From Trichormus sp. ATA11-4-KO1 (GTDB lineage Bacteria > Cyanobacteriota > Cyanobacteriia > Cyanobacteriales > Nostocaceae), in NCBI GenBank assembly GCA_019358915.1, contig JAHHIM010000041.1:1-32866 (forward strand): DNA of 32,866 bases. The letters are read 5' to 3'. Position 1 is the first letter of the stretch. Every line of letters starts with the position of its first letter. Shown here one piece after another: positions 22,601 through 32,796 of the stretch. Below the pieces are notes generated by a model. The model saw nothing but the letters and a program-made list of their open reading frames with translations, was not told the DNA's origin and searched no databases. Position numbers and translations under genes: made by a program.

Positions 22601-25600
22601 GTGTGACTGAGCAAATAGCACCAAATGGTACGCACCTAATTTACAGCGATAGTGGGATTACTGGTTCCACTGGCGAGACGGTGCGTTTTGTTAAGGATGA
22701 TTTAGGCAGATTAACGCAAATTACAGCGCCAGATGGTAGTTTGGTAACTTATACTTATGATGCTCAAGGTAACTTGGTATCAGCCCGTAATCTCGCATCT
22801 GGTGACTCACACCGCTACGGTTATTCTTCCCTCCCTCACTCCCTCCTTACCCTAGCAACAGGAACACCGGGAACACCAGGATCAGCAATTAGCTACTCTA
22901 AAAATACACCGCAAGTATCAACCATCAACGCTGATTTGGGTGGTGCGGTATTGTGGAATGGTAATACTACAAGTTCAGTTGGCAACGAACGCTATACTTT
23001 TAGTTTGCGCAATAGCGAACTCAAGTCTACTGCTACAGGTGTTGTGTTGGTTGGAGTGGATATCACTGGGGGTGGTGTTTCTGTTCTCAATGGTTTGACT
23101 CCGATCTCAGTATCAGGTGGTTATTCACTGTATGCAATTGATCAAGCTGGCTTGAATCTGCTGCAAGTTGCAGGTAATGGCGCGTATGACTGGCAATTGG
23201 CGATCGCGGGAGATGTCAACCGCGATGGTAATGTGGATGGGGTCGATAGTGGATTGTTAGAGGGGGCGATCGCTTCTGGGGTTTACAATACTACCTACGA
23301 CTTCAACCGTGATGGTGTCATCAATGCTACTGATGTGCAGATTCTCGGTAGTAATTATGGGTTTACCGTCAATCGTGCGCCTGTGGTGACGCCAAAACAG
23401 ATATTAACCCATGTTGATTTAAATACTACTGTGGCACTGAATGGGTTAGCGACTGACCCAGAAGGGGATGCGGTGTTCTTCCGCATTGTGGGTGCAGAAA
23501 ATGGCACGGCGAGATTTACGCCTGATGGCAAGTCGGTGTTGTTTACGCCAAATGATGATTACTTCGGCGCGGCTAGTTTTAGCTTGGTTGCAGATGATGG
23601 CTACAGTATGTCTGCACCTGTGAAGGTGGATGTGAATGTTAGTAATGCGGCGTTGGTGAATCTGGACTTTGCACGGCGTGGTTTGCGTTTGGATGCTCTT
23701 GAAAGTGCTGATTTATTAGTAATTGGCGATTTTGCCGACCAACAAAATGTCATACTGCCTTATTCATATTTGCAGTTGGCATCGGATAATTCTGCTGTCG
23801 CCTCAGTATCTCAGGGTGTGGTGACTGGGTTAAGCGATGGTGTGTCAGTGCTGAGTGCTTACAGAGATGGTATTACTGCTGTGACGGCATTGCGTGTGGG
23901 TGAACTGGGTACACCTACGAATCAAACTGAGTTTAATTTGGCATTGGCTGAAACGAATGGATTAAACGTATATCCGCAAGCTGTAACGCTGGTAGAAGGG
24001 GTGAAGCGTCAAATTCTTGTTGGTATCAATGAGGTTCTTGATTCGCCAGATTTGAGGATAGCAACTTCTGGTACTCGTTATTTTGTTAGCAACCCCAATA
24101 TATTGCAGGTAACACCAGATGGGTTAATTACTGCAATAGATGAAGGGGTAGCGTCGGTTACGGTGATTCATGGTGCAACAGAATATGTGCTGCCTGTAAG
24201 CGTAGAAATTCCACATTTGAATTCAGCAGTGCTGGGTAAAGATGGTGGTGCAGTGCAAGCAATTGATGGATCAATGGTCATGGTTGCGCCTGGGGCGTTA
24301 AAAGAAAATGCAACTGTTAGTATAGAAACCGTTAACAAAAACCAACTTGCACTATCAGCTTTAGAAGAAAACTATACATTTACTGGAGCATTTAAGTTAG
24401 ATGTTGGAGAAAGCCAACTTAACATACCCGTACAACTAGCTATTCCAAATACATTTGGAGTAGAGGTTGGCAAAGAAGTATTTTTCATGAGTCAAAGACA
24501 ACTACCTGATGAAAATGGTGTATTACAGCCAGCTTGGTTTATAGAAGAATCAGGAATTGTTGGTGCAGATGGACTAATTCGCACTCAATCACCACCTTGG
24601 AACGGAGTTGTAGAATCCAAAACATACGCGGTAATGGTTCCGAAGTTTTCATATCGTGTTGTGAATGCACAAATTCCAGCTGATTGGATAACTGGTATTG
24701 GTATAGCAGGTATAGCTTTAGCGGTAGGAGGTACATACATTGCAGTTGCTGGAGGTTCTGCTTTGATTGCAGGTGCATCTGTAGTTGGCGGTCTTGGAAT
24801 ACTTGCAAGTCCTTTTATCTTCCCCGATAGATTTGAATCAGCAACAGAGCTGATTGATACAGTCGATGTTGTAACATATCCAGTTATTGAGTTGCCTTAT
24901 ATAACTAAAGCAGGGATTGCTTTAAACCTTGGTCAGTTATCGTCACAATCAAAAGTTCCAATTGCTCAAGTCAAACGACCTACCTCACAACCTCCTTTAG
25001 CTTCAACACCAACTATCGAAAAGTTAGAGGTAGATTTTGATGATAAAGAAGGAGCTTTTATTCGAGTTACTGGTCAAAATTTAAAATCAGTTCCAAAAGA
25101 CACGGAGCTAAATCAGGATAATCAACAATCGACTGACAAATTAGTTTTTGAGTTAGAGTATGGTAACAAAATATATCGACAAAGTGAAGTAGAAACTGCG
25201 GATATTAATAGTATTAGTGAGCAAGTGTTTACTTTCCGCTTACCAAACCATATTCCAGTTAGCGAAGACCTCAAAATTACTGCTATTCGACAGGTTAATC
25301 CTGTGATTGGCCCCCCACAAGAAATCAAAAGCCAGACGCTTTCAGCAATATTCAGTTCTTTTGACCGTGTTATTGCGACAAATCCATTGTCAGGTAATGT
25401 CCAAATCATGAATGCAAAGAACGCTCCAGGGGTTGTTGCGGAGTTTGGTAGTCAAAATCTCTTACTAGCAACTATTCCTTTGGGTCAACAAACGCGACCG
25501 CGCTATTCAGCTGCTTTGGATGATAGAATCTACGTCCCTTTAGAGGGAAATCGTTCCGTTGCTGTCCTAGATGCTTTAGGGTTGCGAGAATTAGATACTA

Positions 25601-28600
25601 ACCCTGAAACACCGCAAATTGACCGTATTTATCTACCTGCTGGTTCTAGCCCTTCTGCAATTGTTTTTAGCTCTGATAAATACTACGCATACATTGCCGA
25701 TCGCAATTTGGGTGCAATATATGTGCTTGATGTTAATCCTAATTCACCAAATTACCATAAACACATTGGTACAATCCAAGTTCCTGAGTCGAAAGGTGTT
25801 CACCAACTAGCTATCAATAGTGATGGTACTTTACTGTTTGCCACAAGTCCAAATACAACATCAAATAAAGGTGAGATTACAGTTATTAATATCGAGCCTA
25901 GCGCCCGTTCACAAAGTTTTCAACAATATAATCGCATCGTCGAAACGGTGAAGACGGAGGCTGGCGTTACGGGAATCTCTGCAACAGAAAATCCCGATGT
26001 AATGTTCTTTACTAATCGTTATCAAGATGTACAAGGATTTGGTCAGCTAACTGTTAAACAAGATTTAAAAGGTAGCATCTCTTCTGAAATTGTGACTGCC
26101 AAGTTAAATCTTGGCAGCGTCTTTGATTATTTTGATGTGAATGAAGCCATCGCTGTAACAATGTTGCGCGACCAAAAGACTGGGATTGAATATGCTTTTG
26201 TTGCGGGACGTAACGGTCGTCAGTTTGGTAGCGGTATTGAAAGTATTGATGGGCAAGGAGCAGGAAGCAATGTTGGTATTGTTCGCATTGCTCCAGGTCA
26301 AGCACCTGAACTTGTTGCTGCTACCCGACCAATTCCGATGGGGTTAACTAGTTCGTTGACACTATCGGATGATAATTCCTACCTTTATGTTGCCAACCCT
26401 GGTGTAAATTCCACCTTTGTTTATGATGTGAATGAGATGATCAAAACTGTAGAAGCTGCTAACAACAGAGAACAGTTAAAGTCAAAACCTCTTGATGAGA
26501 TTAATCCACTTGTGGGAATAGCAACAAATATTCAGCAAGGTTCAGATCAAAATAGACCAATTGGTGCAGGGGCATCTTGGGGTACAACTTCACACGCTAA
26601 AGACCCGCAAATAATTTCTGTTAAGCCTGAAACTGAATATATTCCTGAAGCAGAAGAAGCACTGCGTAAAATTCGGTTTAAGTTTGGAGTTGATCCCATA
26701 TTTAGTCCGCTAGAACAAACATACGCATCCGCAAAACCAGTTGTTGAAGCAATTGCAGAAACAATTTTTGGTGAACCAGCCCAAGCACAACCACAACCAG
26801 TAATAATACCGAAGCCTTTACTAAGACCAATTCCATTCCCCAAAATTTACCCAAAACCGACTCAGTTTGGAAACCCCATAATATTCCCGAACCCAGGTCC
26901 AATCATCATCCCAGATCCAAACCTTGATCCAAATCCTAACCCACAAACGGACAAACAAACTCAGATTGATGAAATTGAATTTTTCCTCAGTACTTTCCCA
27001 GAGAATGAAGGGTTAATTCCAAAAGATTGGACTCCTGCACCCTTAGAAAGTGGTAGAGACTATAATCCCAACCGGATTATTTCTGCTCAATGGTCTAAGG
27101 GTAAATGGACTGGGAAGGATAGCCAAGGTCAAGAAGTTACTAATGATGGTTCTTACGATGAATTTACTTTGCCTGCTGACCGAATGTTAACAGCAGGACA
27201 AACTTACTACTTGGCAATGGTATTTAAGGGACGTAAAGGAAGCGAAGCATTTACAAAAAGATTTACAGATGTTTATAAAGTACCTATTTCGCAACTTCCT
27301 ACCCAACCTTCAATAGATACTTTTAGCAACGTTACAATTCTTACCCCAGGAATTGAGACAGATGCACAAGAATTTGCCAGTGCTGGTTTAGAAAATATCG
27401 CTAGAAAAGTAGCGGCAAATGGTGGAGATGTATTCCGGTATGTTGCAAATACTGGAAAATGGCAACCTGTACGTTACTTTTTCCCAACAACAGAACTTGA
27501 CCAACAACAGCAACAAGCAGATCATCCAAAAGAATCTTCAAAAGGTAGACCTTTGGTTCTTTTGGCAGATTGGACACGAGATATCGAACAGTCGCAGCTC
27601 TATAATTCAGGCTTTGCAGAAGCTGCTGCTGATAGTTTCTTTGCTTCACTAGTAACACTGGATCAAGAACTTGGTGGAAGTGTTGGAAGTTATGATAATT
27701 TTGGGAACCTCAAGCGCACCCAAGGTTCGCTATTCAACTCGCCATTGCACTTTATTGGTTATGGTCAGGGGGCAGTTGTTAATTCCGAAATTGTACAACG
27801 TTTGGGAACCTTTTTCCCCAATGCTGGAGGCCGCGATCGTTCTAAACGTGATTTACAGGTTACTGTGATTGATCCTATTGTTTATGGTCAATCTTCTTTC
27901 GAGCCACAATTGCGGAATATCCTCGATCCAAGAATTACTACTTGGCAGAATGTAACTTATGCTGATACTTATTTCCAGAATAATGCTGGAGAGAATCCTT
28001 TCCCAACATTACCTCAGTCTGATTGGGAAACTGATTTGAGTGATCGTGCTAGTTTTGAGTTAAATAATGGTACATTCACACCTCATAAAACAGCGTTAAA
28101 TTGGTACACTGGAACAGCTAATTTGACTCAAGGACTTGGCACAAATCGTTACCGTCGTTTGGGTGATTTACTATCAACTGGTATTGAAGATTATGAAAGA
28201 ACTTGGTACACCCCAAATCATACACAAGCCAATTTAAAACATGGAGATGAAGATGCTGCATGGGAAGGGATTGGTACTGGCTGGTTTACTTCTGTATTAG
28301 GAGGTGGATTTAATTATCGTCCTTATGGAGATACCAGCCAGAAACTTGGTAAACAGCAACTAGATACTGCATACTTTGAGCGCAATCGGACTCCAGTTTC
28401 TCAAGATAATACTGCCGATCCTCGATTGCGCGGTGACTTTGCTGTTCCTACGCTGTTTAATGGTAATTTCGATGCGATTTCCGCACAATTGGATCAAGAT
28501 ATTCCTGGTTGGAATTTCCAAGATTCTAGAGGTATTAACTCACAAAATAATTTGGTGTCCGGTATTGCAGGAAATCAAAGCATAGCTTTGAGATTAGATA

Positions 28601-31600
28601 CTCAGCTAAATAGTATTACGCATAACCAATTTGTAGTTCCTGATTGGGGTGCGTTGCGGTTTGATTTGCATGTGCCAGTTCCCGATTCTGTTACTGATTC
28701 TCAAAATAGTGTTGTCAGAGTTTTTCTTGACAACTATGAACTACGAAGTTCCGCTTTTCAGGGATTACTTAGAAAAGACCAGAAAAGAAACAATAATGAC
28801 GTAGATTATACTGACGACGGATATCCTGCTGTTGACTTGCGGCAATATAAAGGCAATCTAGGTGCTAGAAACGGAGAGGGACAATCTAACAGAATTAGTT
28901 TTGCAAAAGAAGGATTTCAAACTTTTCAAGTCGATATTCCTAATGAATTTCGTGGCAAAGTAGCAACTCTCAAATTTGAGTTAAGTGGAGGCAAAATAGT
29001 TTACTTAGATAACGTTTTCTTCAAGAGTCAACATCTATTATTTGGTAATCCACAGATGCTAATAGATGGTTCAAATAGACAAGAAGCGAGAAAAGATATA
29101 GATACTCCTAAATTCACTACTAGTTACAACCCCTATATCCCCACAGATCCTCCAAGTAGCTTTTCTAATAACTATCTGATTGAAAGACCTCAGTATTCTT
29201 TGTCATACAACAATGATTTAAAGACACCAAATTGGGTCAGTTATCAATTAAATAAATCTTGGCTTGGTGCTGAGAATGATAGACCCAGCTTTGCAGGAGA
29301 TCCCCATTTACCCTTTGCAATTCAAGTTGGTGAAAAGGATATTCCTGAAAGTAGTGGTTATGAGAGAGGGCATATGACTACTGCTAATCACCGTAATCGC
29401 AATGAACAGGATTATGTAGCAACTTTTCTGATGAGTAATATCATTCCTCAGCCATTACGTTACTCAAAAGACTCTAACGGGAAAGAACTGGAAGGTCAAT
29501 GGAATAAGCTAGAACTATATTTGACTGATTTAGTTCAAACTTATAATAAAGAACTTTACATTATTGCAGGAAGAGAAGGAGTAACTTTTAAAACTATAAG
29601 TTCAAAGGTTAGCGTTCCTGAAAGTATTTGGAAGGTTGTACTAGTTCTAGATCGTCCTGGTCAAGGAATTTCCGACGTAACTAAAGATACCCTCGCTTTT
29701 GGTATTTATTTACCCAACACCCTTGATGTAAATGGTAAAGGGCAAGATCCTAATGACGATTGGAAACAAAACTTTACACTTGACGGAAAGACATTTGGAC
29801 TATTTAATGTTGAAGAACTTGAAAAGCTAACTGGGTATAATTTCCTGTCTAATATTCCCACAGAAATTCAGAAAGCAATTGAAAACCGTGACGTTAATGA
29901 TATTTTCACCAGACTAAATGTCATTAAACCTACTTCCCTGATGGCTGCAATAGAGGAAGAGAATCTATTTCCATTTCCAGTAAGGACCCCTTTCAACACT
30001 ACCACTGGGCATAGTGGTCTCCCAAATCAAATTACCGAACCTACAAATATTAGTCTCCAAGACGTCAGCCGAACGAAAGTTAGCATGAGCCAAAATGGCA
30101 TAAGAAAAGCCACCGATGTTAGCTCCACAGAAGGTAGCACGACTAGCGTTCATATGATTCAGGTCGGTTCCCCTCAAATCGGCTTCAGTCAAATCACACC
30201 AACTCAAGTTGGCGGAATACAAATTAGCATCCCTGACAATAGCGCGTTTCAACCAAGCGCTTTCCAAGGAAACACCAAACAAATCGGCTCCAGTCAAATC
30301 GGCTCGACACAGATCGGCTTGTCTCAAATAGGCTCCGCGCAAGTTGATATCTCTCAAAATAGCGCCTTCGAGGTCAATCGAACTGTCGAGGGGAACACCC
30401 TCAGATTGAATCAACTCAATCCCTCGAAAATCGCGCTCTCCATCAGCATACCGAGCCAACAACTCCTCAGCAGTTATTTCCCAAACCATAATTTAACCTC
30501 CAACTTATTTTCCGATCTTAAATATAGTGCTACTGATCTGTGGCCATCCCTTTTCGACCCCACCTTAAACATCAACCTCCAAATAACCGACCTCCCCACA
30601 GGACAACTAGCAGAAGCCCAACTAACCCAATTCGACCCCCAAGGTCGCCCTAACGGAGGCACAATCCTCATCGACCACAACGCAAACGGCATCGGCTGGT
30701 TCATCGACACCACCCCGCTTGATAACAGCGAATTCACCACCACCCTCACCGACACAGCCTACCGCGCCACCACAGGCGAAGCATTCGGCAAATACGACCT
30801 GCTCACCACCATCCTTCACGAAACAGGACACCTATTAGGTATAATCAACGGCAACCCAGGCTTCGACCGCTACATCCAAACCATCAACAGCACCAAAACC
30901 TTAATAGGCAACAACTTCACCGCCACCCTCACCCCAGACGGTAGCCACCTTGACTCCCAGGTACACCCCTACGACCTGATGAACAACACCCTAGCCCCAG
31001 GCGTGCGTAAGCTACCATCATGGCTCAACCTACAAATGATTAACGCCATCCGTTCCCAGGAGTGGGGGAGTGGGGGAATGGGAGAGTGGGGGAATACCCT
31101 ACAAGCACCACTAACCGCGATACTCCTTGCAGACATCACCAACGGCAACTTCACCGAAACCAACACAACCAAACCCGAATACGGCTGGACAACCCGTGGT
31201 GCAGCCACCATCCTCAATCAAGAAGCCATCCTCACCGAAGACTCCCCCTTACTCAGCAACTTCACCCAAACCTTCATCATCCCTGAACACGCCAAATACC
31301 TCCAATTCACCCTGAAAAACACCACCTTGGGAGCAAACACCTCAACCACCCCAGGTGACGCCTTCGAGGTCGCATTACTCAACCCCAACACCAAACAATC
31401 CTTAATCAACACCAGCCAAGGACTCAGCCACACCGACTCCCTACTCAACATCCAAAACGACGGCACATACTACACCAGCAACAAAGTCACCTTAGTCAAC
31501 ACCACACCCAACAGCACCCTTACCCTCAACCAACCACTCACCTTTAAAGTAGACCTCACAGGCATTCAACCAGGAACCGCCGCCACCCTCTACTTCGACC

Positions 31601-32796
31601 TCCTCGGTTTCGGAGCCAGAGATGCCAAAGTCATCCTCGACAACGTCATGCTACTCGACAATGACTTTGTCGCACCAGTCGCCAACAAAGACACCGCCAC
31701 CACCAACCAAACCCAACCAGTTACAATCAACATTCTCAGCAACGATACCGACACAGACAGCAGCATCAACCTCACAACCCTGTCCATCACAACCAACCCC
31801 AACAACGGGACAATCCAACTAAATCAAGATGGCACAGTCACATACACCCCTAACCCCACCTTTGTCGGCACAGACACCTTCACCTACACCATCACCGACA
31901 CAGAAGGCTTAACATCTAATACTGCCACCGTCAACATCACAGTCAACAATATAGCCCCAGTGATCACAGTAATTACAGGCGACACCACCACCACCGAAGG
32001 CACAACAGCCAACTTTAGTGCCACAGCAGTTGACCCTGGTGACGAACTGACCTACCTCTGGAACTTTGGCGACGGTTCACAATTGGTGGAAGGTGAAAAT
32101 GTTACCCACACCTACACCGACAACGGTACATACATCGCCACCCTGACTGTTATCGATAGTCTTGGCGTCAATAGCTTCCAAACCCTAGAAATCACCGTCA
32201 ATCATGTCGCGCCTCCAGAAATTACCAAACTCAAATTCGAGCAAAAACTACTCCATCTCAAAGTTTACGAAAATTCCCAACTAGTAGAACATGTTAAAGG
32301 CAAACAAAATCAACCAGTATCACCCCTAGCCTTGGACAGAATCCAAATACTCGCCCTCAACAGCAATGACCAATCCCAGATATTTGATGACATCACCTTC
32401 CATGATAGTGGAGAAGGTATTGGCATCACCGACGGAGAAGACGGTAACAAAGCACGTAAAAAGCGCATTGATGGTGATGAAATTTTACAAATCAAAATCC
32501 CACCTACGGATAAATACAACAGCGCCAAAACTGCCTTCGTTACCGTAGATCAAGTACAATCCACCACAAATAAAACCATTGGCGGTCAAGTGAAAATTGT
32601 GGCACTACGCGGTGCCACAATAGTTGGAGAACAAACTTATACCCTTACCGACAAAAACCAAACACTCACATTTACCAACACTACAGCCTTCGACCGTCTG
32701 CACTTAATGGCTGGAGACGAAGATACTGAATTTACCCTCAGAGGATGTTTGAAAAGTTTTAGGGAGTCAAAAATTAAGCCAATCGCTTCACCATAA
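1666..32796 (+). CDS. Giant multidomain extracellular protein (10,376 aa; CARDB/cadherin/RHS-like adhesin with peptidase and nuclease domains); native C-terminus disrupted by an IS
   Basis: Uninterrupted 31.1-kb frame with recognisable repeat and enzyme motifs throughout. The last 17 aa (GCLKSFRESKIKPIASP) and the stop codon are read from the IS end that starts at 32741. Confidence 0.95.
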   Translation: MSGMNELFPNFDSQLMNDGSIMPVMEDPFKLSQGMEISPNNPPTLPVGSPSTDIIVIDTPSSSTYFGEQPSNITPVPLFFQPNSSDTPTNSFDLITGTKSDDQLVGFLSKDEVISSSLSVTSQVGEDNINQQQPDQLSSITSVLSEIDNHQSFHQLTPEILEIFRQEAIARWASLGITPGEQGILQQVQLAIADLPGYQLGWTQGYVVTIDTDAAGAGWFIDLTPADDVEFSNIVSASELHSIESDPAFGRVDLLTVINHEFGHILGLDHLDSHQVMNPTLLIGTRHLPTQESLEVTRATEPVNAALELNLPTISASNGTVTGYLSTNDVINPTRNGRYSDDYQLIDFTVGKLVTLDLSSSNFNTYLQLINADTGQIIAYDDDSGYGANSLLRFTPVDGIKYIVRTTSYSSGVTGTYTLIVTVGRPDLVVTDATAPITAPERSTISLTWTVTNQGEAVATNNWYDYVYLSDNTVLDSSDRYMGNLWNGDKIPLALGASYTASTNMALPERVGAGKQYLLFVADRDNYLVEESETNNVRAVPIEITVPDLVVTEATAPVAVTVGSSAEISWTVLNQGSVQATHRWYDRIYISNDQTFDGSDTQVGGFDSGIPGTPLGAGDTYTLTKTVTIPKTALGSRYLLFVADANNNQYETNETNNIKAIPVQVNAPDLIVSDASAPTTVALGEQITVNWQVTNQGNVTADADWYDYFYLSDDQILDGSDDYITYKWTGDKTPLASNTSYTTTHNITIPTYAKAGNRYLLFVADRDNYQGETNENNNVYSIPININAPDLSISNPQAPKTANPGDSIDVSWTVKNIGDITTNNGWYDHVYLSYDSVYDYSDTYLIKHYNSINLIQDHSYNITESVTLPSDGIGSPGRRYLLFITDIYNYQKETNEDNNVVAIPITLNGENADLAISAVTAPTQAVVGQKIPIELTVTNQGSLTTSSYYWYDYVYLSNKPTLDDSAVYLDSIYSAYYNSYQPLAPGANYTVKQDINLPSNIYGHQYLLFVAEGDNYLDDADRSNNVKAVPIKIDAPDLVISNATTPAQGDAGAQIEVSWTVQNQGNGSAFPPQGYYYYAYLFDSVYLSDDNTLDISKDTLLKDVKTEKLLPLDSGNSYTVTQLLSVPNNVTKGNKYLLFVADRQNRLSELNENNNVKAIPFSIVDPDPNLPLLQTGSPVQNQNSPQFVTNPNTATYTPLAGSSATGLLGQYYVLGGNVTTFPDFSTLQPTYTKVDPQVNFDFEGDSFAGIPGLTNNFAARWTGKINIATAEDVTFYLSKDYYTNSGNRLYIDGQLVIDNQGYYQQEASKTINLTPGEHDLYLEFFNNIHYYGGVSLSYAPMGSNKQVIPSSILTPTAVTPPANLPDLKISNVAAPSLIAPGQTISTTWIVTNQSSNSTQSNWYDKVYLSDDTTFDSKDTFFAGFDGRTNSPLVAGDNYIQTQNINIPTNIELGNKYLLFVTNPDNTEIESDRTNNAYALPVTITNPDLIVTEATAPATAADREQITVSWTVKNQGNVPTNAYNWYDSVYLSDNTVFDSSDRYMGNLWVSDNLATGETYDKSENFTLPERTGSGKWYLLVITNTSNYQAETSDTNNVYAIPIEITVPDLTITTSSTPTTAAVGETVSVSWTVKNLGDVSAAADRYDSVYLSNDPNFEATDTYVTDFYRSGSSPLAAGASEVRTGNIIIPHSQLGDRYLLFVGDRTNSQSETDETNNIWATPITITAPDLIVSDVTVPIAAELGETVSVSWTVTNLGDVVALRDWYDRIYLSDDLIFDNSDQYVTQKWISNQTPLAAFSSYQIIQNVSLPTYTKVGNRYLLFITDHSNYQGETNEKNNIKAVPIYIKAADLVVTDASTSTNTVTPGSTLELAYTVKNQGETATVNNSGRWWWDKGGWYDRIYLSYDQVYDGADTELANRWISPTPILAADGIYTFSNISVTLPNNTIGQPGSRYLLFIADKDNYQSETNESNNVKAIPITITGDNADLEVTAATAPSVVTTQQTVSISWTVKNTGALTASADWYDSVYISNDTTLDASDTKLRDQWVSSPTPLAANGQYNLTSDSTIPQGRTGNQYLLFVADSYNYQGELNQLNNVRAVPITVQAPDLVVTDATAPVKTYPGTQIEVSWTIKNQGNTSAHADWYDRIYLSDDATLNTSQDTLLKEVWTGNLTPLKIGDNYSVSQLLTLPSTTPIGSRYLLFVADANRAQGESDDNNNIKAIPITIGDNDPDLIVTTATASSTAVLGETITVNWTVLNQGNIEASTDWYDTIYLSDDETLDNSDVAVSSQSVADKIPLAVNATYNFNRNITIPNTTTGNRYLLFVADAGKQQSERDETNNVRAVPITLTAPDLVVSDASSTVETATWGETIQVFWTVTNTQTVTAAANWSDQIYLSDDTILDGTDKFVATFSAASHAPLAGNSSYTQTNKSIIIPTNSGTGSKYLLFVTDANDAQGETDNNNNVKAIPFEVQSPNLQVTDINAPTTATWRESINVSWMVTNQGTGAALADWWDYVYLSSNPTLDSSDTYLGNLSAANQSPLASGSSYTQSRNVTIPSVTPGTWYLLFATDNNGNQQAESNETDNVGAIALEVKAPDLVISAVTAPTSSILGATIPVSWTVTNQGTGAALADWWDYVYLSANPTLDGNDTFLGNLWTGRETPLAAGASYTVGRNVTIPNVAEGTWYLLFAADRDNYQSETDNNNNVKAVTIELGAPDIELTAATAPTTASALETIQVGWTVTNIGNIVAPADWSDYIYLSDDATFDGNDIQLGYLSAADKTPLSAGTSYTQTLNVTIPGTVRGNKYLLFVADRHNIQGESNESNNVRTLQLTVNAPDLIVFDATAPNRAILGETIDVSWTVTNSGSGSAFTKWYDSIYFSDDTNFDASDTYVADFWTAEKTPLAPGASYNLAKKITVPNTATGNRYLLFVADRTNNQGETNENNNVQAIAITLGSLDLIPTITSSPAIATSGTTVSLEWTVNNAGSAAATGNWVDRIYLSTDNKFDTSDLLLKERHFDGSLSSGSSYQAQVDLDLPINVNGSYYLLVATDANQQVIELNREENNIAASLINIELAPYADLAISNVTAPTLTIGDPAQVTIDWTVTNIGTGIGNTNTWVDRIIASKDSIIGNSDDIVLASFSNPKALNVSENYTRSEKLRLSPGFQGQYQLFVQTDATGVVFENNLEANNTIAADHTFSVVSIPYADLVVDAVQVQETASSGQKMQVSWTVANNGIGITNTNSWSDRVSLATDPEGKNIIANLGSFELLGALAVGGTYNRSVDVTLPNGLTGTYYLVVTTGGPFEFIYTHNNSRVSNAVSVTLTPPPDLVVTNVTSPTTTVQSGSKIDVSWSVENSGTGNATGTWVDSIFIREVGNVNGQLISLGNFTFGNGLQAGKSYTRSEQFFLPSTLQGLYEIVAKTNASNSLYEHGATGNNTITATNPILLSLAPRPDLQVKEIIAPTTANAGGTISLEFIVANEGTIGTTTPNWQDRVYLSLDDKISHDDLSLGSFSNAAALGSLESYRTQANTLVIPKYFRGEAYLIVQTDAAGQVDEYPQESNNQKAVKLNINSLPPADLVTSNVVAPTQAFAGSQIKVRYTVTNLGIGETDRDRWTDTIWLTRDKNRPSPANREGSAEDILLTSIGHNGSLKVGEKYEAEVDVTVPGQVTGEWYITAWSDAYNVVLEDTLDINANPDDPTELDNNNYKARPITILLTPPPDLVVTSVTPTTQGLGGQPFSVTWTVQNQGANGTAQSNWVDYVYLSDSPTLNAPEAKQWFLGSVGHSGSLGVNETYTLKLDTVLAPGASGRYIIVQTNPNGSVWEGPYTNNNLLTANTNVTSTPADLTVTNVKILPQNFSGERTTVEWTVQNVGSDIWSGTRYWYDEIWVSPDPTFILSRATKVGFVPYSSQQSLRTGDSYTQRQDITLPAGIDGEYYIYVSTDYSYNYDTRKFRGEIPRSGDNNSYRQSFEYRVYEDPGNNLGSTPLTVTYKEPDLQITNLVLPETSPTSGQTISVNWTVSNTGTRDTRETFWYDRLYLSRDESLDFNDTLLGEFTRRGGLQQGQSYAGSSEITLPDGIAGNFYLLVFTDSNVSQGYSKLSFEGNPTLARVPEFQDEGNNIIAAPLTVTLQPPPDLQVTSVRIPERATTGQTFNLEYTVENKGSGNTPSRQNRWNDLIYLSRDEFLDLQSDRYLGYTEHTDGLNAGSSYTVNKTLQLPNDLTGSYYVFVITDAPQNNVRGHVFEGNNEGNNAQPSAQPLILQLPPPADLQVDEITIPATAKSGDSIQISWKVTNYGDNPATGQWSDAVYLSEDAIWDINDRAIGRVSYSGILATDAAYTSTLTANLPPATPGQYRIIVRPDIFNQVYEAENEANNRTTSADPLNVTVEQLQLGVPFNTILNTGQERLFQINLQAGQTLRINTTSSATDAANEVFVRFQSAPTSIIYDAAYTGELGANQSVVIPTTKSGTYYVLVRGYSQPSNNTPISLLADVLPFGITDAIADRGGDSRYVTTNILGAQFQPGAIVKLVRPGIAEYIPVKSQVINSTKITAIFDLTNAPHGLYDVKVINPDGREAILPYRYLVERAIEPDVTVGLGGPSVLAPGDFGTYGVSVQSLTNIDTPYVHFSIGTPELGINSDVFNLPYTEFSSNLRGNPEGVLSDVPWASLISDVNTNGEIIAPGYVLDLPNAGFVGRTFNVQTYPGLQAELAKDSKALEDVPDDAIAFRFHILATATAMTRDEFVQEQTQQALLLRNAILKDQTASPALTVLIADANTWTNAYLAALEEAGLLRKEDEAPTIRENPQVISLMATLATGLLLGPAGNEIISNGNLVSFFEQIRKWYGHNPSLRGQELPPDPQQFDLGLSHTTHVQSFNVYVPFGDARVDLPQGASVPPPNFASFFNAAGTTNNLATLTGPVGFGAENIVPLGAALPYTIRFENAATASTAVGEVRIVTQLDSDLDPRNFQLGGLRLGDIQVHIPAGRATFSGDFDFIRSKGFILRVSAGLDVISNTATWLIQAIDPNTGEVMQNPNIGLLPPNNANGVGSGFVTYSVLPFAGSATGTEITTEARVIFNTAAPMDTAQVTNIIDGVAPTTALTVTPLVAGGSDYLVNWTATDDTAGAGVKHVTVYVAEDGGDFKIWQQQTTETSAVYSGRAGHTYEFLALATDHAGNREQPGLGISAPSDGFQVNLGTLPTVEKTTQPDLGTLPAPKPEPSTNQLFLEAKQGIPAVAPATNPSEFKSVLRPFTAAAFATGIPTSHANIAPLAITVLEDGSVLASGGANRGSLYRFDKDGEIGGGGDRGQNSPTPIATLEHPIFDLALDNNATLWATTGGGPLLQLDLQTGKVVKQYGNSITQALAIQSETGLIYVSSGKGIEIFNPQTETFTHYSDLRVDSLAFAPDGQLWATTWPERGDIVRFDEQGKAQRMLSFDSPVDSIAFGMKGTHLEGLLFVSNNNGNLVMVDLATLQQVTVASGGSRGENITTTADGRVLLSQSHQIDVFSPLVAPQVKATNPPPDAIVALPQGTISITFDSDMFIGAANDTASVLNPANFELVSASDRFTPQSVRYDAQTLTVLLDFNTITPDHYELRVSQNLKSIAGAELIGGYKEQFTAISDFSALVDFQFNNARSHRANETISYDVTLKSKADSDLLLPVMLVLDPSQYFTGVPTGATRNPTGAYMIDLRDNLPEGVLKRGQSTTSRTITVYNPDALRVEFTPGIYALPYPNQAPIVTSAPVLTAYSGQSYTYQVAANDPDGAVLGYLLYDAPQGMKIDSNGLITWTPTQLSPASSNVTLQVYDLRGAKTTQTFSLNVVGGNHKPVFNTPVVSGGTVEEGNFSSNSATGMTVRGAEGKTLQIKVAATDADQDKLIYWADNLPGSAVFDLSTGILTWTPSYTAAGTYENVQFIVSDGIERVTQTATILIAPTNQAPTFTRPADRIVREGEKVRIQLQATDADITDAVSSLSPSLLTYNSNLLPGGANLDPRTGLFEWTPAYFQAGEFEIPFTVSDGESITTQITKITVLNVNAAPVFDNLGTWQVQEGQEVRFRAFAFDPDNPGFVPQDRNADGQLTILEGSDPSVTYTVSGLPDGATFDPVTAMFIWTPGYASTGTYNVAFTATDDGNGTPTSKSAEVTVPISVLNSNRAPQISEFTNITLNRGEVQELIIRVTDADNDPLVLQLQPESTGYNIPDFVRFTDNGDGTATLRLTPSANDGGDYSFTLTASSDNGNGGGANAIHSDEYTFIVTVNAPNDPPKLPFIGNKVAVVGDTLEFLVKASDRNQDNLSFNLSGLPADAILTPTAIYGEALFQWTPTVAAIGTYPVTIAATDSGNGHPSEILSSQQEFNLVVRTSNTAPTLSTIANSSVAEGQTLSLVFSSTDADGDSISYSASNLPPGAVLDPVQGILTWTPNSSQAGIYNNISLIASDGNKSSSQSLAILVNNTNQAPVLAPLPIQTGQENNLVQFTLTAGDIDNDSLIYSAVSPLPTGAVFDARTGQFTWKPNYEQAGEYVLKFAVTDAQGASDVRDVTLRVSNVNRNPAISVSNHAVALGETLRFTVVGTDPDNGTNLTYSAVDLPDGAILDAATGQFTWTPSPGQVGDYTITYTVADGEVTVTQTSLVRVAVAPTPPTVTLDLTPSFPAVPGQKVIVQTLASGLAEITNLTATVDGKAVTVDSQGRIEFVPTIPGRLIVDVIATDADGRVGYNSTVVKVRDPEDQDAPIVAFAAGLDGAKLTAVTDIIASVNDSNLDNWVLEIADFGEEAYRTLASGNGAVSDRTLAQFDPAKLENGFYQLRLRATDISDRTSSTQVVVEANSATNKSAYVRSETDLSVNLGGNNINLVRTYSSLNTSDVGSFGYGWQLANVDTNIQTNVPLTGRESLGVYEPFRVGTRLYLTTPTGERIGFTFAPQKQTIPGLTYYTPTWVADSGVNYTLSSADAKLTLAGNRLYDLKTGHAYNPASGSYGGAEYTLTAADGTVYYLSTSRGVTEQIAPNGTHLIYSDSGITGSTGETVRFVKDDLGRLTQITAPDGSLVTYTYDAQGNLVSARNLASGDSHRYGYSSLPHSLLTLATGTPGTPGSAISYSKNTPQVSTINADLGGAVLWNGNTTSSVGNERYTFSLRNSELKSTATGVVLVGVDITGGGVSVLNGLTPISVSGGYSLYAIDQAGLNLLQVAGNGAYDWQLAIAGDVNRDGNVDGVDSGLLEGAIASGVYNTTYDFNRDGVINATDVQILGSNYGFTVNRAPVVTPKQILTHVDLNTTVALNGLATDPEGDAVFFRIVGAENGTARFTPDGKSVLFTPNDDYFGAASFSLVADDGYSMSAPVKVDVNVSNAALVNLDFARRGLRLDALESADLLVIGDFADQQNVILPYSYLQLASDNSAVASVSQGVVTGLSDGVSVLSAYRDGITAVTALRVGELGTPTNQTEFNLALAETNGLNVYPQAVTLVEGVKRQILVGINEVLDSPDLRIATSGTRYFVSNPNILQVTPDGLITAIDEGVASVTVIHGATEYVLPVSVEIPHLNSAVLGKDGGAVQAIDGSMVMVAPGALKENATVSIETVNKNQLALSALEENYTFTGAFKLDVGESQLNIPVQLAIPNTFGVEVGKEVFFMSQRQLPDENGVLQPAWFIEESGIVGADGLIRTQSPPWNGVVESKTYAVMVPKFSYRVVNAQIPADWITGIGIAGIALAVGGTYIAVAGGSALIAGASVVGGLGILASPFIFPDRFESATELIDTVDVVTYPVIELPYITKAGIALNLGQLSSQSKVPIAQVKRPTSQPPLASTPTIEKLEVDFDDKEGAFIRVTGQNLKSVPKDTELNQDNQQSTDKLVFELEYGNKIYRQSEVETADINSISEQVFTFRLPNHIPVSEDLKITAIRQVNPVIGPPQEIKSQTLSAIFSSFDRVIATNPLSGNVQIMNAKNAPGVVAEFGSQNLLLATIPLGQQTRPRYSAALDDRIYVPLEGNRSVAVLDALGLRELDTNPETPQIDRIYLPAGSSPSAIVFSSDKYYAYIADRNLGAIYVLDVNPNSPNYHKHIGTIQVPESKGVHQLAINSDGTLLFATSPNTTSNKGEITVINIEPSARSQSFQQYNRIVETVKTEAGVTGISATENPDVMFFTNRYQDVQGFGQLTVKQDLKGSISSEIVTAKLNLGSVFDYFDVNEAIAVTMLRDQKTGIEYAFVAGRNGRQFGSGIESIDGQGAGSNVGIVRIAPGQAPELVAATRPIPMGLTSSLTLSDDNSYLYVANPGVNSTFVYDVNEMIKTVEAANNREQLKSKPLDEINPLVGIATNIQQGSDQNRPIGAGASWGTTSHAKDPQIISVKPETEYIPEAEEALRKIRFKFGVDPIFSPLEQTYASAKPVVEAIAETIFGEPAQAQPQPVIIPKPLLRPIPFPKIYPKPTQFGNPIIFPNPGPIIIPDPNLDPNPNPQTDKQTQIDEIEFFLSTFPENEGLIPKDWTPAPLESGRDYNPNRIISAQWSKGKWTGKDSQGQEVTNDGSYDEFTLPADRMLTAGQTYYLAMVFKGRKGSEAFTKRFTDVYKVPISQLPTQPSIDTFSNVTILTPGIETDAQEFASAGLENIARKVAANGGDVFRYVANTGKWQPVRYFFPTTELDQQQQQADHPKESSKGRPLVLLADWTRDIEQSQLYNSGFAEAAADSFFASLVTLDQELGGSVGSYDNFGNLKRTQGSLFNSPLHFIGYGQGAVVNSEIVQRLGTFFPNAGGRDRSKRDLQVTVIDPIVYGQSSFEPQLRNILDPRITTWQNVTYADTYFQNNAGENPFPTLPQSDWETDLSDRASFELNNGTFTPHKTALNWYTGTANLTQGLGTNRYRRLGDLLSTGIEDYERTWYTPNHTQANLKHGDEDAAWEGIGTGWFTSVLGGGFNYRPYGDTSQKLGKQQLDTAYFERNRTPVSQDNTADPRLRGDFAVPTLFNGNFDAISAQLDQDIPGWNFQDSRGINSQNNLVSGIAGNQSIALRLDTQLNSITHNQFVVPDWGALRFDLHVPVPDSVTDSQNSVVRVFLDNYELRSSAFQGLLRKDQKRNNNDVDYTDDGYPAVDLRQYKGNLGARNGEGQSNRISFAKEGFQTFQVDIPNEFRGKVATLKFELSGGKIVYLDNVFFKSQHLLFGNPQMLIDGSNRQEARKDIDTPKFTTSYNPYIPTDPPSSFSNNYLIERPQYSLSYNNDLKTPNWVSYQLNKSWLGAENDRPSFAGDPHLPFAIQVGEKDIPESSGYERGHMTTANHRNRNEQDYVATFLMSNIIPQPLRYSKDSNGKELEGQWNKLELYLTDLVQTYNKELYIIAGREGVTFKTISSKVSVPESIWKVVLVLDRPGQGISDVTKDTLAFGIYLPNTLDVNGKGQDPNDDWKQNFTLDGKTFGLFNVEELEKLTGYNFLSNIPTEIQKAIENRDVNDIFTRLNVIKPTSLMAAIEEENLFPFPVRTPFNTTTGHSGLPNQITEPTNISLQDVSRTKVSMSQNGIRKATDVSSTEGSTTSVHMIQVGSPQIGFSQITPTQVGGIQISIPDNSAFQPSAFQGNTKQIGSSQIGSTQIGLSQIGSAQVDISQNSAFEVNRTVEGNTLRLNQLNPSKIALSISIPSQQLLSSYFPNHNLTSNLFSDLKYSATDLWPSLFDPTLNINLQITDLPTGQLAEAQLTQFDPQGRPNGGTILIDHNANGIGWFIDTTPLDNSEFTTTLTDTAYRATTGEAFGKYDLLTTILHETGHLLGIINGNPGFDRYIQTINSTKTLIGNNFTATLTPDGSHLDSQVHPYDLMNNTLAPGVRKLPSWLNLQMINAIRSQEWGSGGMGEWGNTLQAPLTAILLADITNGNFTETNTTKPEYGWTTRGAATILNQEAILTEDSPLLSNFTQTFIIPEHAKYLQFTLKNTTLGANTSTTPGDAFEVALLNPNTKQSLINTSQGLSHTDSLLNIQNDGTYYTSNKVTLVNTTPNSTLTLNQPLTFKVDLTGIQPGTAATLYFDLLGFGARDAKVILDNVMLLDNDFVAPVANKDTATTNQTQPVTINILSNDTDTDSSINLTTLSITTNPNNGTIQLNQDGTVTYTPNPTFVGTDTFTYTITDTEGLTSNTATVNITVNNIAPVITVITGDTTTTEGTTANFSATAVDPGDELTYLWNFGDGSQLVEGENVTHTYTDNGTYIATLTVIDSLGVNSFQTLEITVNHVAPPEITKLKFEQKLLHLKVYENSQLVEHVKGKQNQPVSPLALDRIQILALNSNDQSQIFDDITFHDSGEGIGITDGEDGNKARKKRIDGDEILQIKIPPTDKYNSAKTAFVTVDQVQSTTNKTIGGQVKIVALRGATIVGEQTYTLTDKNQTLTFTNTTAFDRLHLMAGDEDTEFTLRGCLKSFRESKIKPIASP
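2131..2532 (+). other. Domain: metzincin/matrixin-like zinc metallopeptidase (copy 1)
   Basis: HEFGHILGLDH (2443-2475) matches HExxHxxGxxH and is followed by a Met-turn-like VMNPTL; preceded by IDTDAAGAGWFIDLTP. Confidence 0.8.
2617..2931 (+). other. Domain: PPC (pre-peptidase C-terminal)-like beta-sandwich
   Basis: D.Y...VTLDLSSSNFNTYLQLINADTGQIIAYDDDSG...YIVRTTSY...TGTYTL pattern typical of PPC domains. Confidence 0.75.
2941..14802 (+). repeat. About 30 tandem CARDB (Ig-like) repeats of roughly 120 aa
   Basis: Consensus PDL.V....AP......G..I.VSWTV.N.G......W.D.VYLS.D...D..D......YLLFVAD......E.NE.NN; 30 unit starts counted by eye from 2941 to 14446, period about 360-400 bp. Confidence 0.9.
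5281..5724 (+). other. Domain: PA14 (carbohydrate-binding), inserted between CARDB units 6 and 7
   Basis: GLLGQYY...DPQVNFDF...NNFAARWTGKI...RLYIDGQLVIDN...LTPGEHDLYLEFF...KQVIPSSIL is the PA14 signature. Confidence 0.85.
17425..18156 (+). other. Domain: beta-propeller (NHL/SMP-30-like blades)
   Basis: Repeated blade motifs DLALDNNATLWATT, ALAIQSETGLIYVS, SLAFAPDGQLWATT, NITTTADGRVLLS. Confidence 0.65.
18829..21516 (+). repeat. Nine cadherin-like / putative Ig (He_PIG) repeats
   Basis: Units N.AP.......EG..L......D.D.D.L.Y....LP.GA..D..TG.F.WTP...Q.G.Y starting near 18829, 19099, 19429, 19726, 20077, 20401, 20704, 20977 and 21253. Confidence 0.85.
22129..22827 (+). other. Domain: RHS N-terminal (DUF6531-like) motif plus only 2-3 YD repeats
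   Basis: DLSV...INLVRTYSSLN..VGSFGYGWQL, then DDLGRLTQITAPDGSLVTYTYDAQGNLVSA; no long YD array and no DPxG core end seen. Confidence 0.7.
23209..23361 (+). other. Domain: dockerin type I-like (two Ca-binding loops)
   Basis: GDVNRDGNVDGVD ... DFNRDGVINATD duplicated F-hand motif. Confidence 0.85.
23371..24600 (+). other. Domains: cadherin/Big_9-like, two Big_2-like and a ZU5-like module
   Basis: NRAPVV...ATDPEGD...FTPNDDYFGAASF...DDG; SDNSAVASVSQGVVTG; SNPNILQVTPDGLITA; GKDGGAVQAIDGSMVMVAPGALKE (ZU5-like start). Confidence 0.6.
24685..24822 (+). other. 46-aa uncharged Gly/Ala-rich hydrophobic segment (two-helix hairpin)
   Basis: WITGIGIAGIALAVGGTYIAVAGGSALIAGASVVGGLGILASPFIF contains no charged residue. 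Confidence 0.75.
25363..26430 (+). other. Domain: YVTN/YncE-type beta-propeller
   Basis: PSAIVFSSDKYYAYIAD, QLAINSDGTLLFATS, SLTLSDDNSYLYVANPG blade motifs. Confidence 0.7.
27319..28116 (+). other. Domain: alpha/beta-hydrolase-like fold with a degenerate nucleophile elbow
   Basis: VTILTPG ... LADW ... LHFIGYGQGAVVNSEIVQRLG ... VTVIDP ... ADTYFQ ... H order of motifs; the elbow reads GYGQG instead of GxSxG. Confidence 0.6.
29032..29889 (+). other. Domain: DNA/RNA non-specific endonuclease (NucA/Serratia-type beta-beta-alpha-Me)
   Basis: HLLFGNP, NYLIERPQYSLSYNN, NWVSYQLNKSWLG, SGYERGH (ERGH at 29362-29373), ATFLMSNIIPQ, WNKLE, KELYIIAG, KVSVPESIWKVVLVLD, VEELEKLTGYNFLSN are colinear with Anabaena NucA as I recall it. 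Confidence 0.92.
29965..30489 (-). CDS. Pentapeptide-repeat protein (174 aa), fully nested antisense within the giant ORF
   Basis: Typical cyanobacterial N-cap AEELLARYADGERDF, tandem A(D/N)Lxx units (ADLCR ADLTG ADLFG ... ANLYS ANLSW CDLTE ADLRG), C-cap TTMPSG, GGAGG 7 nt before the ATG, TAG stop at 29967-29965. Confidence 0.9.
   Translation of the reverse strand: MVWEITAEELLARYADGERDFRGIELIQSEGVPLDSSIDLEGAILRDINLRGAYLRQADLCRADLTGADLFGVSLESAWLKRAIVRDANLYSANLSWCDLTEADLRGTDLNHMNASRATFCGANIGGFSYAILAHANFRSADVLETNICRFGNLIWETTMPSGSVERGPYWKWK
30496..30501 (-). promoter_or_regulatory. Shine-Dalgarno site of the nested antisense gene
   Basis: Minus strand reads ...AAGTTGGAGGTTAAATT-ATG; GGAGGT is a perfect anti-SD complement at suitable spacing. 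Confidence 0.8.
30565..31050 (+). other. Domain: zinc metallopeptidase-like (copy 2), homologous to the N-terminal copy
   Basis: ITDLPTGQLA...IDHNANGIGWFIDTTP.D.SEF...AFGKYDLLTTILHETGHLLG (HExxH from 30817)...DGSHLD...DLMNNTL.PGVR. Confidence 0.75.
31061..31092 (+). repeat. Four tandem G-rich octamers within the reading frame
   Basis: AGTGGGGG AGTGGGGG AATGGGAG AGTGGGGG, encoding part of EWGSGGMGEWGN, set in otherwise very G-poor sequence. Confidence 0.75.
31672..32202 (+). other. Domains: cadherin/Big_9-like repeat followed by a PKD domain
   Basis: APVANKD...INILSNDTDTD...YTPNPTFVGTDTFTYTITD; then LTYLWNFGDGS....VTHTYTDNGTYIATLTV (PKD WDFGDG-type motif). Confidence 0.85.

Follow-up and report, generated by a model that had tools for sequence, protein, structure and literature searches.

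A pentapeptide-repeat gene nested antisense within a giant cyanobacterial gene, beside a NucA-like nuclease domain

The window analysed here, the entire 32,866-nt contig C41 (JAHHIM010000041.1) of the cyanobacterium Trichormus sp. ATA11-4-KO1 (genome 5.97 Mb, 41.7% G+C), carries a giant open reading frame (ORF) of 10,376 amino acids (aa), inside which a 174-aa ORF for a pentapeptide-repeat protein (PRP) lies on the opposite strand. We interpret this, with a probability of roughly 0.78, as real and old antisense dual coding, in which a functional PRP gene would run backwards and codon-aligned through the giant gene, ~95 nt past its nuclease domain. Dual coding itself appears strongly supported by the comparison of homologous loci. 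A preliminary description, made from the letters of the window, had proposed a fully nested antisense gene with both strands under selection, and this proposal is supported by the conservation of the PRP, by 16 loci that are free of stops on the plus strand and by the avoidance of codons that would read as Cys on that strand. The features on which the argument turns are as follows.

1666..32796, plus strand: giant ORF, 10,376 aa (ORF listing)
29155..29871, plus strand: NucA-like non-specific endonuclease domain of the giant protein (Pfam PF01223, E 4.4e-34)
29872..29964, plus strand: short conserved piece joining nuclease domain and overlap (KAIENRDV..LNVIKP..LMAA..; alignment A3)
29965..30489, minus strand: nested PRP gene, 174 aa plus stop, ATG start (ORF listing and Pfam)
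30550..31419, plus strand: HExxH-motif region, the start of a conserved C-terminal module (alignment A4; HETGH at nt 30817)

The nested gene and its homologues

The minus-strand ORF lies, as first described, wholly within the ~31-kb plus-strand ORF and in phase 0 with it, and its stop codon, on the opposite strand, falls 94 nt beyond the point where the nuclease match ends. Its identity as a PRP was borne out by Pfam (Pentapeptide, PF00805; three stretches, E 1.2e-23 and 82.7 bits, the cut-off being 20.2) and by N- and C-caps that are conserved in homologues, and the family profile appears to recognise in it an uninterrupted series of eight or more A(D/N)LXX-type repeats, as expected of a PRP. 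A profile of 16 PRPs (alignment A2: 12 nested and four from fragments of the arrangement) matched solved PRPs (2J8K, E 2e-47; 3DU1, E 1.4e-44), from which an Rfr fold, a beta-helix that is quadrilateral and right-handed, can be predicted. Across the same DNA the plus strand reads QIGSSQIGSTQIGLSQIGSAQ..., as claimed, a Q/S/T/I/G-rich linker for which no Pfam family match was found.

In this phase every TTA, CTA or TCA codon of the PRP would be a stop in the giant ORF, and a recount agreed with the earlier statement that there are none: the 21 Leu codons comprise 17 TTG, two CTC and two CTG, with no TTA or CTA, and TCA is absent among the 12 Ser codons. Across 1,989 long ORFs of the genome, TTA and CTA account for 46.7% of Leu and TCA for 16.7% of Ser codons, the corresponding figures for 23 unrelated PRP ORFs of the same genome being 39.1% and 10.8%. 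The chance of complete avoidance is 2e-7 with genome usage and 7.6e-6 with PRP usage, in keeping with the order of 1e-5 first estimated from an assumed usage. Avoidance of these codons as a general habit of PRPs was considered and is ruled out by their use in the unrelated PRPs (39% for Leu, 11% for Ser), which carry 4-43 antisense stops each, equivalent to 5.4-19.2 per 175 codons. Among stop-free runs in the frame of the PRP across the giant ORF (n = 468), the longest is the 175 codons found here, followed by runs of 132 and 92. The chance that the window PRP would place no Cys at all in the plus frame is 4.6e-5 (20 Ala and eight Thr codons).

A database search returned 449 proteins matching the PRP at E<=1e-3 (884 candidates), many of them annotated as PRPs at source; the best 120 of the 449 are 43-95% identical to it and mostly 164-185 aa long. 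Scanning one genome per species gave 56 PRP loci, from which two non-cyanobacterial ones were dropped (L065 and L066; 31-40% identity over part of the query), and of the 54 cyanobacterial loci all but L063 and L064, which are short or partial, have an intact PRP ORF (52 loci). Three of the 54 (L018, L032 and L043) lie in open frames that exceed 2,600 aa and share homology with the giant ORF to either side of the PRP. The source genome itself holds two close paralogues, with 82% (contig C36) and 55% (contig C65) identity, antisense within open frames of 780 and 363 aa that read from the end of a nuclease domain through a QIG-type stretch into the start of the HExxH region. These two loci (L002, G000:C36:405816-409328, and L003, G000:C65:227235-230774) are truncated nuclease-PRP-HExxH copies with intact PRPs. 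The PRP of C65 clusters with the one nested at L068, a locus of another genome, and the window and C36 PRPs are near-identical over ~125 residues and then divergent, which suggests recombination inside the PRP gene between these two copies.

When 200 more genomes from the same family were searched in six frames with the nuclease-to-HExxH stretch as query, matches appeared in 125 of 201 genomes (the source genome included), mostly to stand-alone nucleases. Stop-free matches running from query positions 1-23 to 712 were present in eight genomes (G115, G123, G173, G011, G171, G122, G197 and G190), with long partial matches in G153, G178 and G043. Every locus fetched (L068-L076 and L100-L103) carries an intact antisense PRP without TTA, CTA or TCA, 144-250 aa long in L068-L076 (with the fragment L077) and 127, 301, 302 and 137 aa long in L100-L103.

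Overall, the nested arrangement was found at 16 distinct loci, the window included, in several cyanobacterial genera (L069 has the same sequence as L032 and was counted once); culturable strains with such a locus include Nostoc sp. CHAB 5836 and Plectonema radiosum NIES-515. At all 16 the insertion point and phase are identical and the plus frame runs stop-free through the PRP; the open frames that were measured span 1,148 to more than 10,000 aa. In length the nested PRPs range from 127 to 302 aa, their identity to that of the window is 29-80%, and TTA, CTA and TCA are absent from all of them. A nuclease domain lies upstream at 15 of the 16 (partial in L076), none having been found at E<1e-5 upstream in L101. 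Tandem double PRPs of 301 and 302 aa, with two N-caps and two C-caps, occur at L101 (G147:C274) and L102 (G121:C307). A PRP 73% identical to that of the window was also present on a 3,080-nt contig (L033, JACCVJ010000077.1) from a metagenome bin labelled Tatlockia (Legionellaceae); it falls on the tree among Nostoc and Calothrix copies and is therefore likely a binning error.

Copies of the PRP also occur on their own. Among 55 aligned PRP genes (the 52 loci with intact ORFs and three own-genome copies), 42 have no giant gene around them, and fragments of the arrangement are represented by seven loci together with L002 and L003. At the free copies, tblastn with the giant protein detected only the PRP region and ~5-20 codons on each side, and the aligned antisense frame extends only ~5-75 codons each way. 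The flanks retain remnants of the giant gene (..SLMAATDEEL.. and H.LTS..F..LKY), and at the two loci examined the neighbours are ordinary genes (RecQ, glycosyltransferase, hydrolase, GH25 lysozyme). New antisense stops, one to three each, are carried by 22 of the 42 free copies and by none of the nested ones, and all but one are TTA at the central Leu of different repeats. Antisense-frame stops in homologues, which would formally speak against dual coding, occur at 26 of the 54 loci; apart from L037, these are copies from which the giant gene has disappeared, completely or, at L011, except for short flanks.

On a PRP tree of 64 rows the nested copies are spread throughout, the 'nested' label requiring at least five changes, and for many of the free copies the sister, across short branches, is a nested one (L052 beside L070, L034 beside L032, and L044, L045 and L051 beside L043). 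We read the free copies as repeated and fairly recent escapes from the giant gene, that is, as fragments that would derive from the nested arrangement. In one group of 11 free loci (L044-L060), synonymous polymorphism affects 42 of 79 conserved columns, yet only one TTA is present; the leftover antisense ORF there is merely 216-256 aa. A difference between nested and free copies in divergence by codon position was looked for and dropped, none being found at matched divergence (15 nested-nested pairs).

Selection on the two reading frames

Outside the overlap, comparison of the window with L018, L032 and L043 showed the normal plus-frame order of divergence among codon positions (d3>d1>d2; 0.131/0.083/0.292 for d1/d2/d3 downstream in L018), and within the overlap the order was d1>d3>d2 (0.207/0.121/0.144, 0.358/0.173/0.197 and 0.454/0.276/0.368 against L018, L032 and L043, respectively). 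Position 1 of the plus frame, which is position 3 of the PRP, changes fastest, and within the overlap selection at the amino-acid level therefore tracks the PRP frame. Most residues that are invariant in the plus frame are Q at intervals of five, the mirror of conserved TTG or CTG Leu codons. Codon usage in 12 nested PRPs (2,163 codons) and in 23 unrelated PRPs (7,062 codons) compared as follows.

TTA and CTA, read on the plus strand as stop: nested 0/247 of Leu codons, unrelated 39%
TCA, read as stop: nested 0/136 of Ser codons, unrelated 11%
GCA, read as Cys: nested 1/238 of Ala codons, unrelated 27%
ACA, read as Cys: nested 1/96 of Thr codons, unrelated 37%
GTA, read as Tyr: nested 5%, unrelated 30%
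TCT, read as Arg: nested 4%, unrelated 18%

GAA, AAA, GGA, AGA and CAA are not avoided, and there is therefore no general bias against A-ending codons. Plus-frame Cys is avoided and the giant protein is itself nearly free of Cys (one in 10,376 residues, at position 10,361), so that the synonymous codons of the PRP appear to be filtered by the content that the plus frame permits. We take this filtering to be the strongest sign that the plus frame is translated within the giant protein. The comparison supports an unequal relationship, in which the PRP frame would carry selection on amino acids and the plus frame would be a tolerated, composition-filtered linker, and both frames appear to have been kept by selection across diverged homologues, as antisense dual coding entails.

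Under such dual coding, amino-acid-level selection would act on the PRP frame while the giant gene is read straight through the PRP DNA, and synonymous choice (TTG for Leu, GCT or GCC for Ala, ACT or ACC for Thr) would keep the plus frame free of stops and Cys, the outcome being a Q/S/T/I/G-rich linker between the nuclease and a C-terminal module with HExxH, cadherin and PKD parts. If the PRP is an inhibitor of the nuclease, the nesting may have originated when a nuclease ORF read through a convergent inhibitor gene and became fused to a downstream module, and it would lock nuclease and inhibitor together, recombination being unable to separate them. An AlphaFold2 model of the linker (alignment A3, eight rows) with a mean predicted local distance difference test (pLDDT) score of 36.1 was considered as a sign of disorder and dropped, the conserved HExxH region (alignment A4, 13 rows) also scoring only 33.5; both models fall below 37 on shallow alignments and are therefore uninformative.

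Two possible expression signals lie upstream of the PRP start codon.

30496..30501, minus strand: Shine-Dalgarno (SD)-like GGAGGT, 6 nt 5' of the PRP ATG (sequence)
30521..30526, minus strand: candidate -10 box TATATT, 31 nt 5' of the PRP start codon (inferred)

The GGAGGT reported earlier as the PRP's own SD was found where it had been placed, and a purine-rich motif of the GGAGG, GAAGG or GAGAGG type occurs 6-10 nt before the PRP ATG at most of the 14 related loci listed, the plus frame reading TS or PP there. Some 30 nt upstream, 15 of the 16 loci compared, the window included, carry the block CACTATATTTAAG or GGGTTATCTTT (with TATATT or TATCTT), L076 being different. Because this block encodes conserved plus-frame residues (KYS or KDN), a -10 signal cannot be separated from coding. 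A promoter and terminator scan of 29700-30900 gave no more sites than did shuffled sequences, with no promoter 5' of the PRP start.

Several observations weigh against dual coding of long standing. At L037 (JBCBQE010001127.1, a 2,213-nt contig bearing nuclease, PRP and the start of the HExxH region) the PRP contains one TTA and the big frame accordingly one stop; the giant gene is broken there, or else the sequence is in error. It was by way of the giant gene that the deep nested PRPs came to light, a sampling bias owing to which the tree cannot prove that nesting is ancestral to the family as a whole. Free copies are still depleted in the relevant codons (TTA+CTA 39/823, TCA 0/403, GCA 20/779, ACA 8/340), a persistence that fits recent escape but is incompletely explained by it. 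It could also be held that the PRP gene alone is functional and that the giant ORF is open by chance or as a decaying fusion, untranslated across the overlap. The plus frame does evolve like a passenger, and the aligned antisense frame has no stops at 28 of the 54 loci, about half, even without the giant gene. Such a view nevertheless seems very improbable in the face of 16 loci, with PRPs of down to 29% identity and up to 302 codons, that remain open, in phase with domains conserved to either side of the overlap; of plus-frame Cys codons avoided to the extent of 1/238 and 1/96, consistent with the single Cys in 10,376 residues; and of the 5-19 antisense stops per 175 codons in unrelated PRPs.

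The converse, that only the giant ORF is functional and the PRP-like ORF is the mirror by-product of a period-5 QIGxx repeat, is barely credible. The antisense of A(D/N)Lxx is indeed xxQI(G/S), which likewise has period 5, and the invariant plus-frame columns are Q at every fifth residue, but substitution rates track the codon positions of the PRP and not those of the plus frame, for which no Pfam match was found in this segment. Moreover, the PRP ORF stays intact where the giant gene has been lost, in the two loci examined among ordinary genes, and its non-repeat N- and C-caps, start codon and SD-like motif are conserved. A selfish or mobile PRP cassette, inserted backwards into the giant gene and tolerated as hidden homing-endonuclease genes are, would account for PRP copies with short flanks at unrelated chromosomal sites, and phage methylases offer a comparable gene within a gene with an open host frame (available text of PMC11855218). 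We consider this improbable: no mobility function is known for PRPs, the dispersed copies carry remnants of the giant gene and hence point to movement outward rather than inward, and the 16 nested loci share one insertion point and phase, their flanks having diverged along with the PRP.

The giant protein and a possible nuclease inhibitor

The Pfam PF01223 match in the giant ORF spans nt 29164-29862, and the nuclease domain corresponds to residues ~9,164-9,402 of 10,376, i.e. it is internal. Among solved structures it is closest to two 'Nuclease' chains, 2O3B and 1ZM8 (E 1e-68), which we take to be Anabaena NucA alone and in complex with NuiA. G72 and H73 of its (D)RGH motif are invariant at 12 of 12 nested loci, and with both the profile match and the catalytic His of this motif the domain can be assigned to the Endonuclease_NS family. 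In the source genome a canonical nucA (C13:94286-94945, plus strand) is followed directly downstream by a convergent nuiA (95270-95662, minus strand), and when 20 stand-alone nucA loci of the family were sampled, nuiA lay no more than 2.5 kb away at 14 of them (12 convergent and two co-directional downstream). The nested PRP gene appears to have the same placement, just downstream of nuclease DNA and, as is usual for nuiA, convergent. The protein itself lies outside the NuiA family PF07924, with Pfam matches to pentapeptide families only, and the genome's single NuiA is that at C13:95270-95662. By tblastn, no NuiA was detected in the 18 nested or fragment loci searched, nor in the 56 PRP loci.

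A PRP in the place and orientation of nuiA beside a nuclease can therefore be read as a nuclease inhibitor or immunity protein. We tentatively propose, at somewhat under even odds, that it is a cytoplasmic inhibitor of the adjacent nuclease domain and the positional replacement of nuiA; NucA is described as toxic before export, with an always-present cytoplasmic inhibitor required (available text of PMC13522737). Perhaps the PRP, being acidic, mimics DNA in the way that PRPs binding gyrase do: the 16 PRPs in alignment A2 are acidic without exception (isoelectric point 4.2-5.5), and the PRP profile matched Qnr (E 7e-21), MfpA (9e-19) and a McbG-like protein (1.5e-16) among solved PRPs. According to the available part of PMC8145042, a 2021 review, no more than two functions of PRPs are known explicitly, one being the mimicry of DNA through which MfpA and Qnr act as inhibitors of DNA gyrase, and the biochemical functions of cyanobacterial PRPs are almost completely unknown. 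Jablonska et al. (available text of PMC5714182) observed YjbI-like PRP genes as neighbours of GH-E His-Me nuclease toxins whose immunity gene had not been detected. In the literature searched for PRPs with nucleases, no PRP was reported to inhibit a nuclease.

Compared with the window, the nuclease and the PRP region diverge in step (28-69% and 26-76% identity), and identity is 58-84% for the HExxH region and 52-92% for the next 305 residues. A predicted complex of the nuclease domain with the PRP scored 0.00 (mark 0.32), which counts neither for nor against binding. PRP genes occur within 2.5 kb of stand-alone nucA at two of the 20 loci (L086 and L099), which is about what chance would give because PRP genes are abundant. 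At L086 (G026:C37:182603-188250), where nucA has no nuiA within 2.5 kb, the PRP gene lies directly upstream on the same strand, and its product is 31% identical to a nested PRP (E 1e-22), possibly by chance.

The case for an inhibitor has evident weaknesses. Acidity is non-specific, 7 of 13 unrelated PRPs being acidic too, and nuclease and PRP are only ~95 nt apart, so that linkage alone could explain their co-divergence. The region upstream of the nuclease is likewise variable (28-65%), so that there is no clean cassette, and it would be equally fair to say that all but the C-terminal module varies. Many fragments, among them L002, L077, L101 and further six-frame matches starting at query positions 270-350, keep the PRP and the HExxH region without the nuclease, and no nuclease lies within 4 kb of the free PRP copies, which stay intact all the same; the PRP thus occurs without the nuclease, and its partner could be something else. 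These observations favour a different reading, a serious contender that we likewise place somewhat below an even chance, in which dual coding is real and the PRP has nothing to do with the nuclease: it would act on the HExxH module, to which it is linked as tightly as to the nuclease, or on another component, or else antisense transcription would regulate the giant gene, convergent transcription acting through transcriptional interference or an antisense RNA duplex. That nearly all cyanobacterial PRP functions are unknown (available text of PMC8145042) leaves room for it. Against it stand the position and orientation of the PRP gene, which equal those of nuiA beside nucA, and the absence of NuiA from the nested loci searched; moreover, a role of the RNA alone would not preserve PRPs of 127-302 aa with conserved N- and C-caps over 29-80% identity.

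The remainder of the giant protein is of a multidomain, surface or secreted type. A Pfam scan identified 24 CARDB stretches, PA14, Peptidase_M10, He_PIG, Big_9, Cadherin_5, RHS_repeat, Dockerin_1 and PKD in addition to Endonuclease_NS. Met (0.47%) and His (0.87%) are also infrequent, and this composition, poor in Cys, Met and His, may reflect the export route or extracellular life. The protein continues for ~770 residues past the nested PRP, and this part is more conserved than the nuclease. It includes a further feature 3' of the overlap.

31672..32199, plus strand: Big_9/cadherin-like and PKD domains (Pfam)

Of the folded domains said earlier to follow the overlap, cadherin, Big_9 and PKD were recovered, and the supposed peptidase amounts to an HExxH motif (HETGH) without a Pfam match: 30490-31599 matched no Pfam family even at E up to 1, save for a chance-level match to TNF. 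The HExxH region is nonetheless 65-85% identical to that of 12 other loci (alignment A4; mean column identity 74%), with H90, E91 and H94 invariant. Near the N-terminus a second HExxH motif (HEFGHILGLDH, residue 260, at about nt 2443 on the plus strand) is matrixin-like and coincides with the Peptidase_M10 match, and the protein thus bears two metalloprotease-like motifs, this one and the HETGH of the C-terminal module. A 243-aa ORF 5' of the giant gene (690-1421, plus strand) has no Pfam match, nor do the other long ORFs within the giant gene (130, 110 and 106 aa on the minus strand and 132 aa in another plus frame).

Significance and comparison with known systems

The locus would provide a natural system in which two proteins, a folded beta-helix and a composition-filtered linker, have shared DNA over the long term, and in which selection on a second frame is directly visible in codon choice through the absence of stops and Cys. 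It also offers a concrete hypothesis for PRP function, inhibition of the adjacent NucA-like nuclease, which, if true, would assign a biochemical function to a clade of cyanobacterial PRPs and add a new class of nuclease inhibitor. For annotation it carries a warning, as gene callers may drop either the PRP gene or the 10,376-aa gene; pipelines are reported systematically to discard embedded overlapping ORFs (available text of bioRxiv 10.1101/2020.11.18.388249). The literature searched for the nested arrangement and for PRPs with nucleases yielded no description, one candidate paper (PMC8557916) dealing with other genes.

The nearest known arrangement is nucA-nuiA of Anabaena and Nostoc, in which a sugar-non-specific nuclease is secreted and its protein inhibitor is cytoplasmic. 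The nuclease domain of the giant protein is a close relative of NucA (2O3B and 1ZM8, E 1e-68), and in both cases a small gene on the opposite strand lies just downstream of the nuclease DNA, as in the source genome and at 12 of the 20 sampled loci. The window differs in that the small protein is a PRP and not a member of the NuiA family, no NuiA having been found at the nested loci searched, and in that the nuclease ORF runs on through the small gene for ~770 residues more. Polymorphic toxins with Tox-NucA (Zhang et al. 2012, PMC3482391) are alike in that a giant, repeat-rich protein bears a NucA-type nuclease, with a small gene directly past the nuclease DNA, both of these being far more variable than the flanking constant region, and in that truncated orphan fragments in the same genome keep the small gene (here L002 and L003). 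Unlike those toxins, in which the nuclease is C-terminal, the giant protein has an internal nuclease with the constant region downstream, and its small gene is antisense and nested rather than co-directional. In the available text of Zhang et al. (PMC3482391), the immunity families of Tox-NucA are Imm36, Imm-SUKH and Imm-NTF2 and not PRPs, cyanobacteria fall outside the listed spread and the term 'pentapeptide repeat' does not appear. It is conceivable, though we would put it at rather less than an even bet, that the giant surface proteins of filamentous and pleurocapsalean cyanobacteria carry in nuclease and PRP a toxin-antidote cassette, ancient and diversifying, with the PRP as DNA mimic.

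The DNA-mimic PRPs MfpA, Qnr, AlbG and McbG, the last two of which protect against their toxins, belong to the same Pfam family as the nested PRP and are likewise acidic. The protection that MfpA and Qnr confer comes from their taking the place of DNA on a DNA-processing enzyme (available text of PMC8145042). The nested PRP differs from them in its closest solved relatives, Nostoc Np275/Np276 and All3740 (HetL), the biochemical function of which that same text gives as unknown, and in its presumed target, a nuclease rather than gyrase. The ShiLan-type hidden HNH endonuclease genes in phage methylase genes, as described in the available text of PMC11855218, resemble the window in having an inner gene across which the host frame stays open, the host protein bearing an extra tolerated segment. 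That element is an out-of-frame, actively mobile homing endonuclease, whereas the inner gene here is antisense, involves no mobility gene, keeps a fixed position and has diverged together with its host gene.

Bacteria have few long genes that overlap another gene in antisense; most of these are young, and they are frequently contested. As in olg1 and olg2 of Pseudomonas aeruginosa and in pop, antisense to ompA in enterohaemorrhagic Escherichia coli (EHEC), a long ORF is here fully embedded antisense in a coding gene. For these genes, the available texts of PMC8850804 and PMC7103648 give evidence of selection on both frames and describe such embedded genes as evolutionarily novel. They have expression data, and the pair in the window is known from sequence alone; on the other hand, its embedded gene comes from a large, structurally solved family with free-standing homologues and occupies the more strongly selected frame, and the pair recurs at 16 loci in several genera with the embedded protein diverged to 29% identity. 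If the reading proposed here holds, bacteria would, as far as we are aware, offer no better comparative case to date of antisense dual coding that has lasted.

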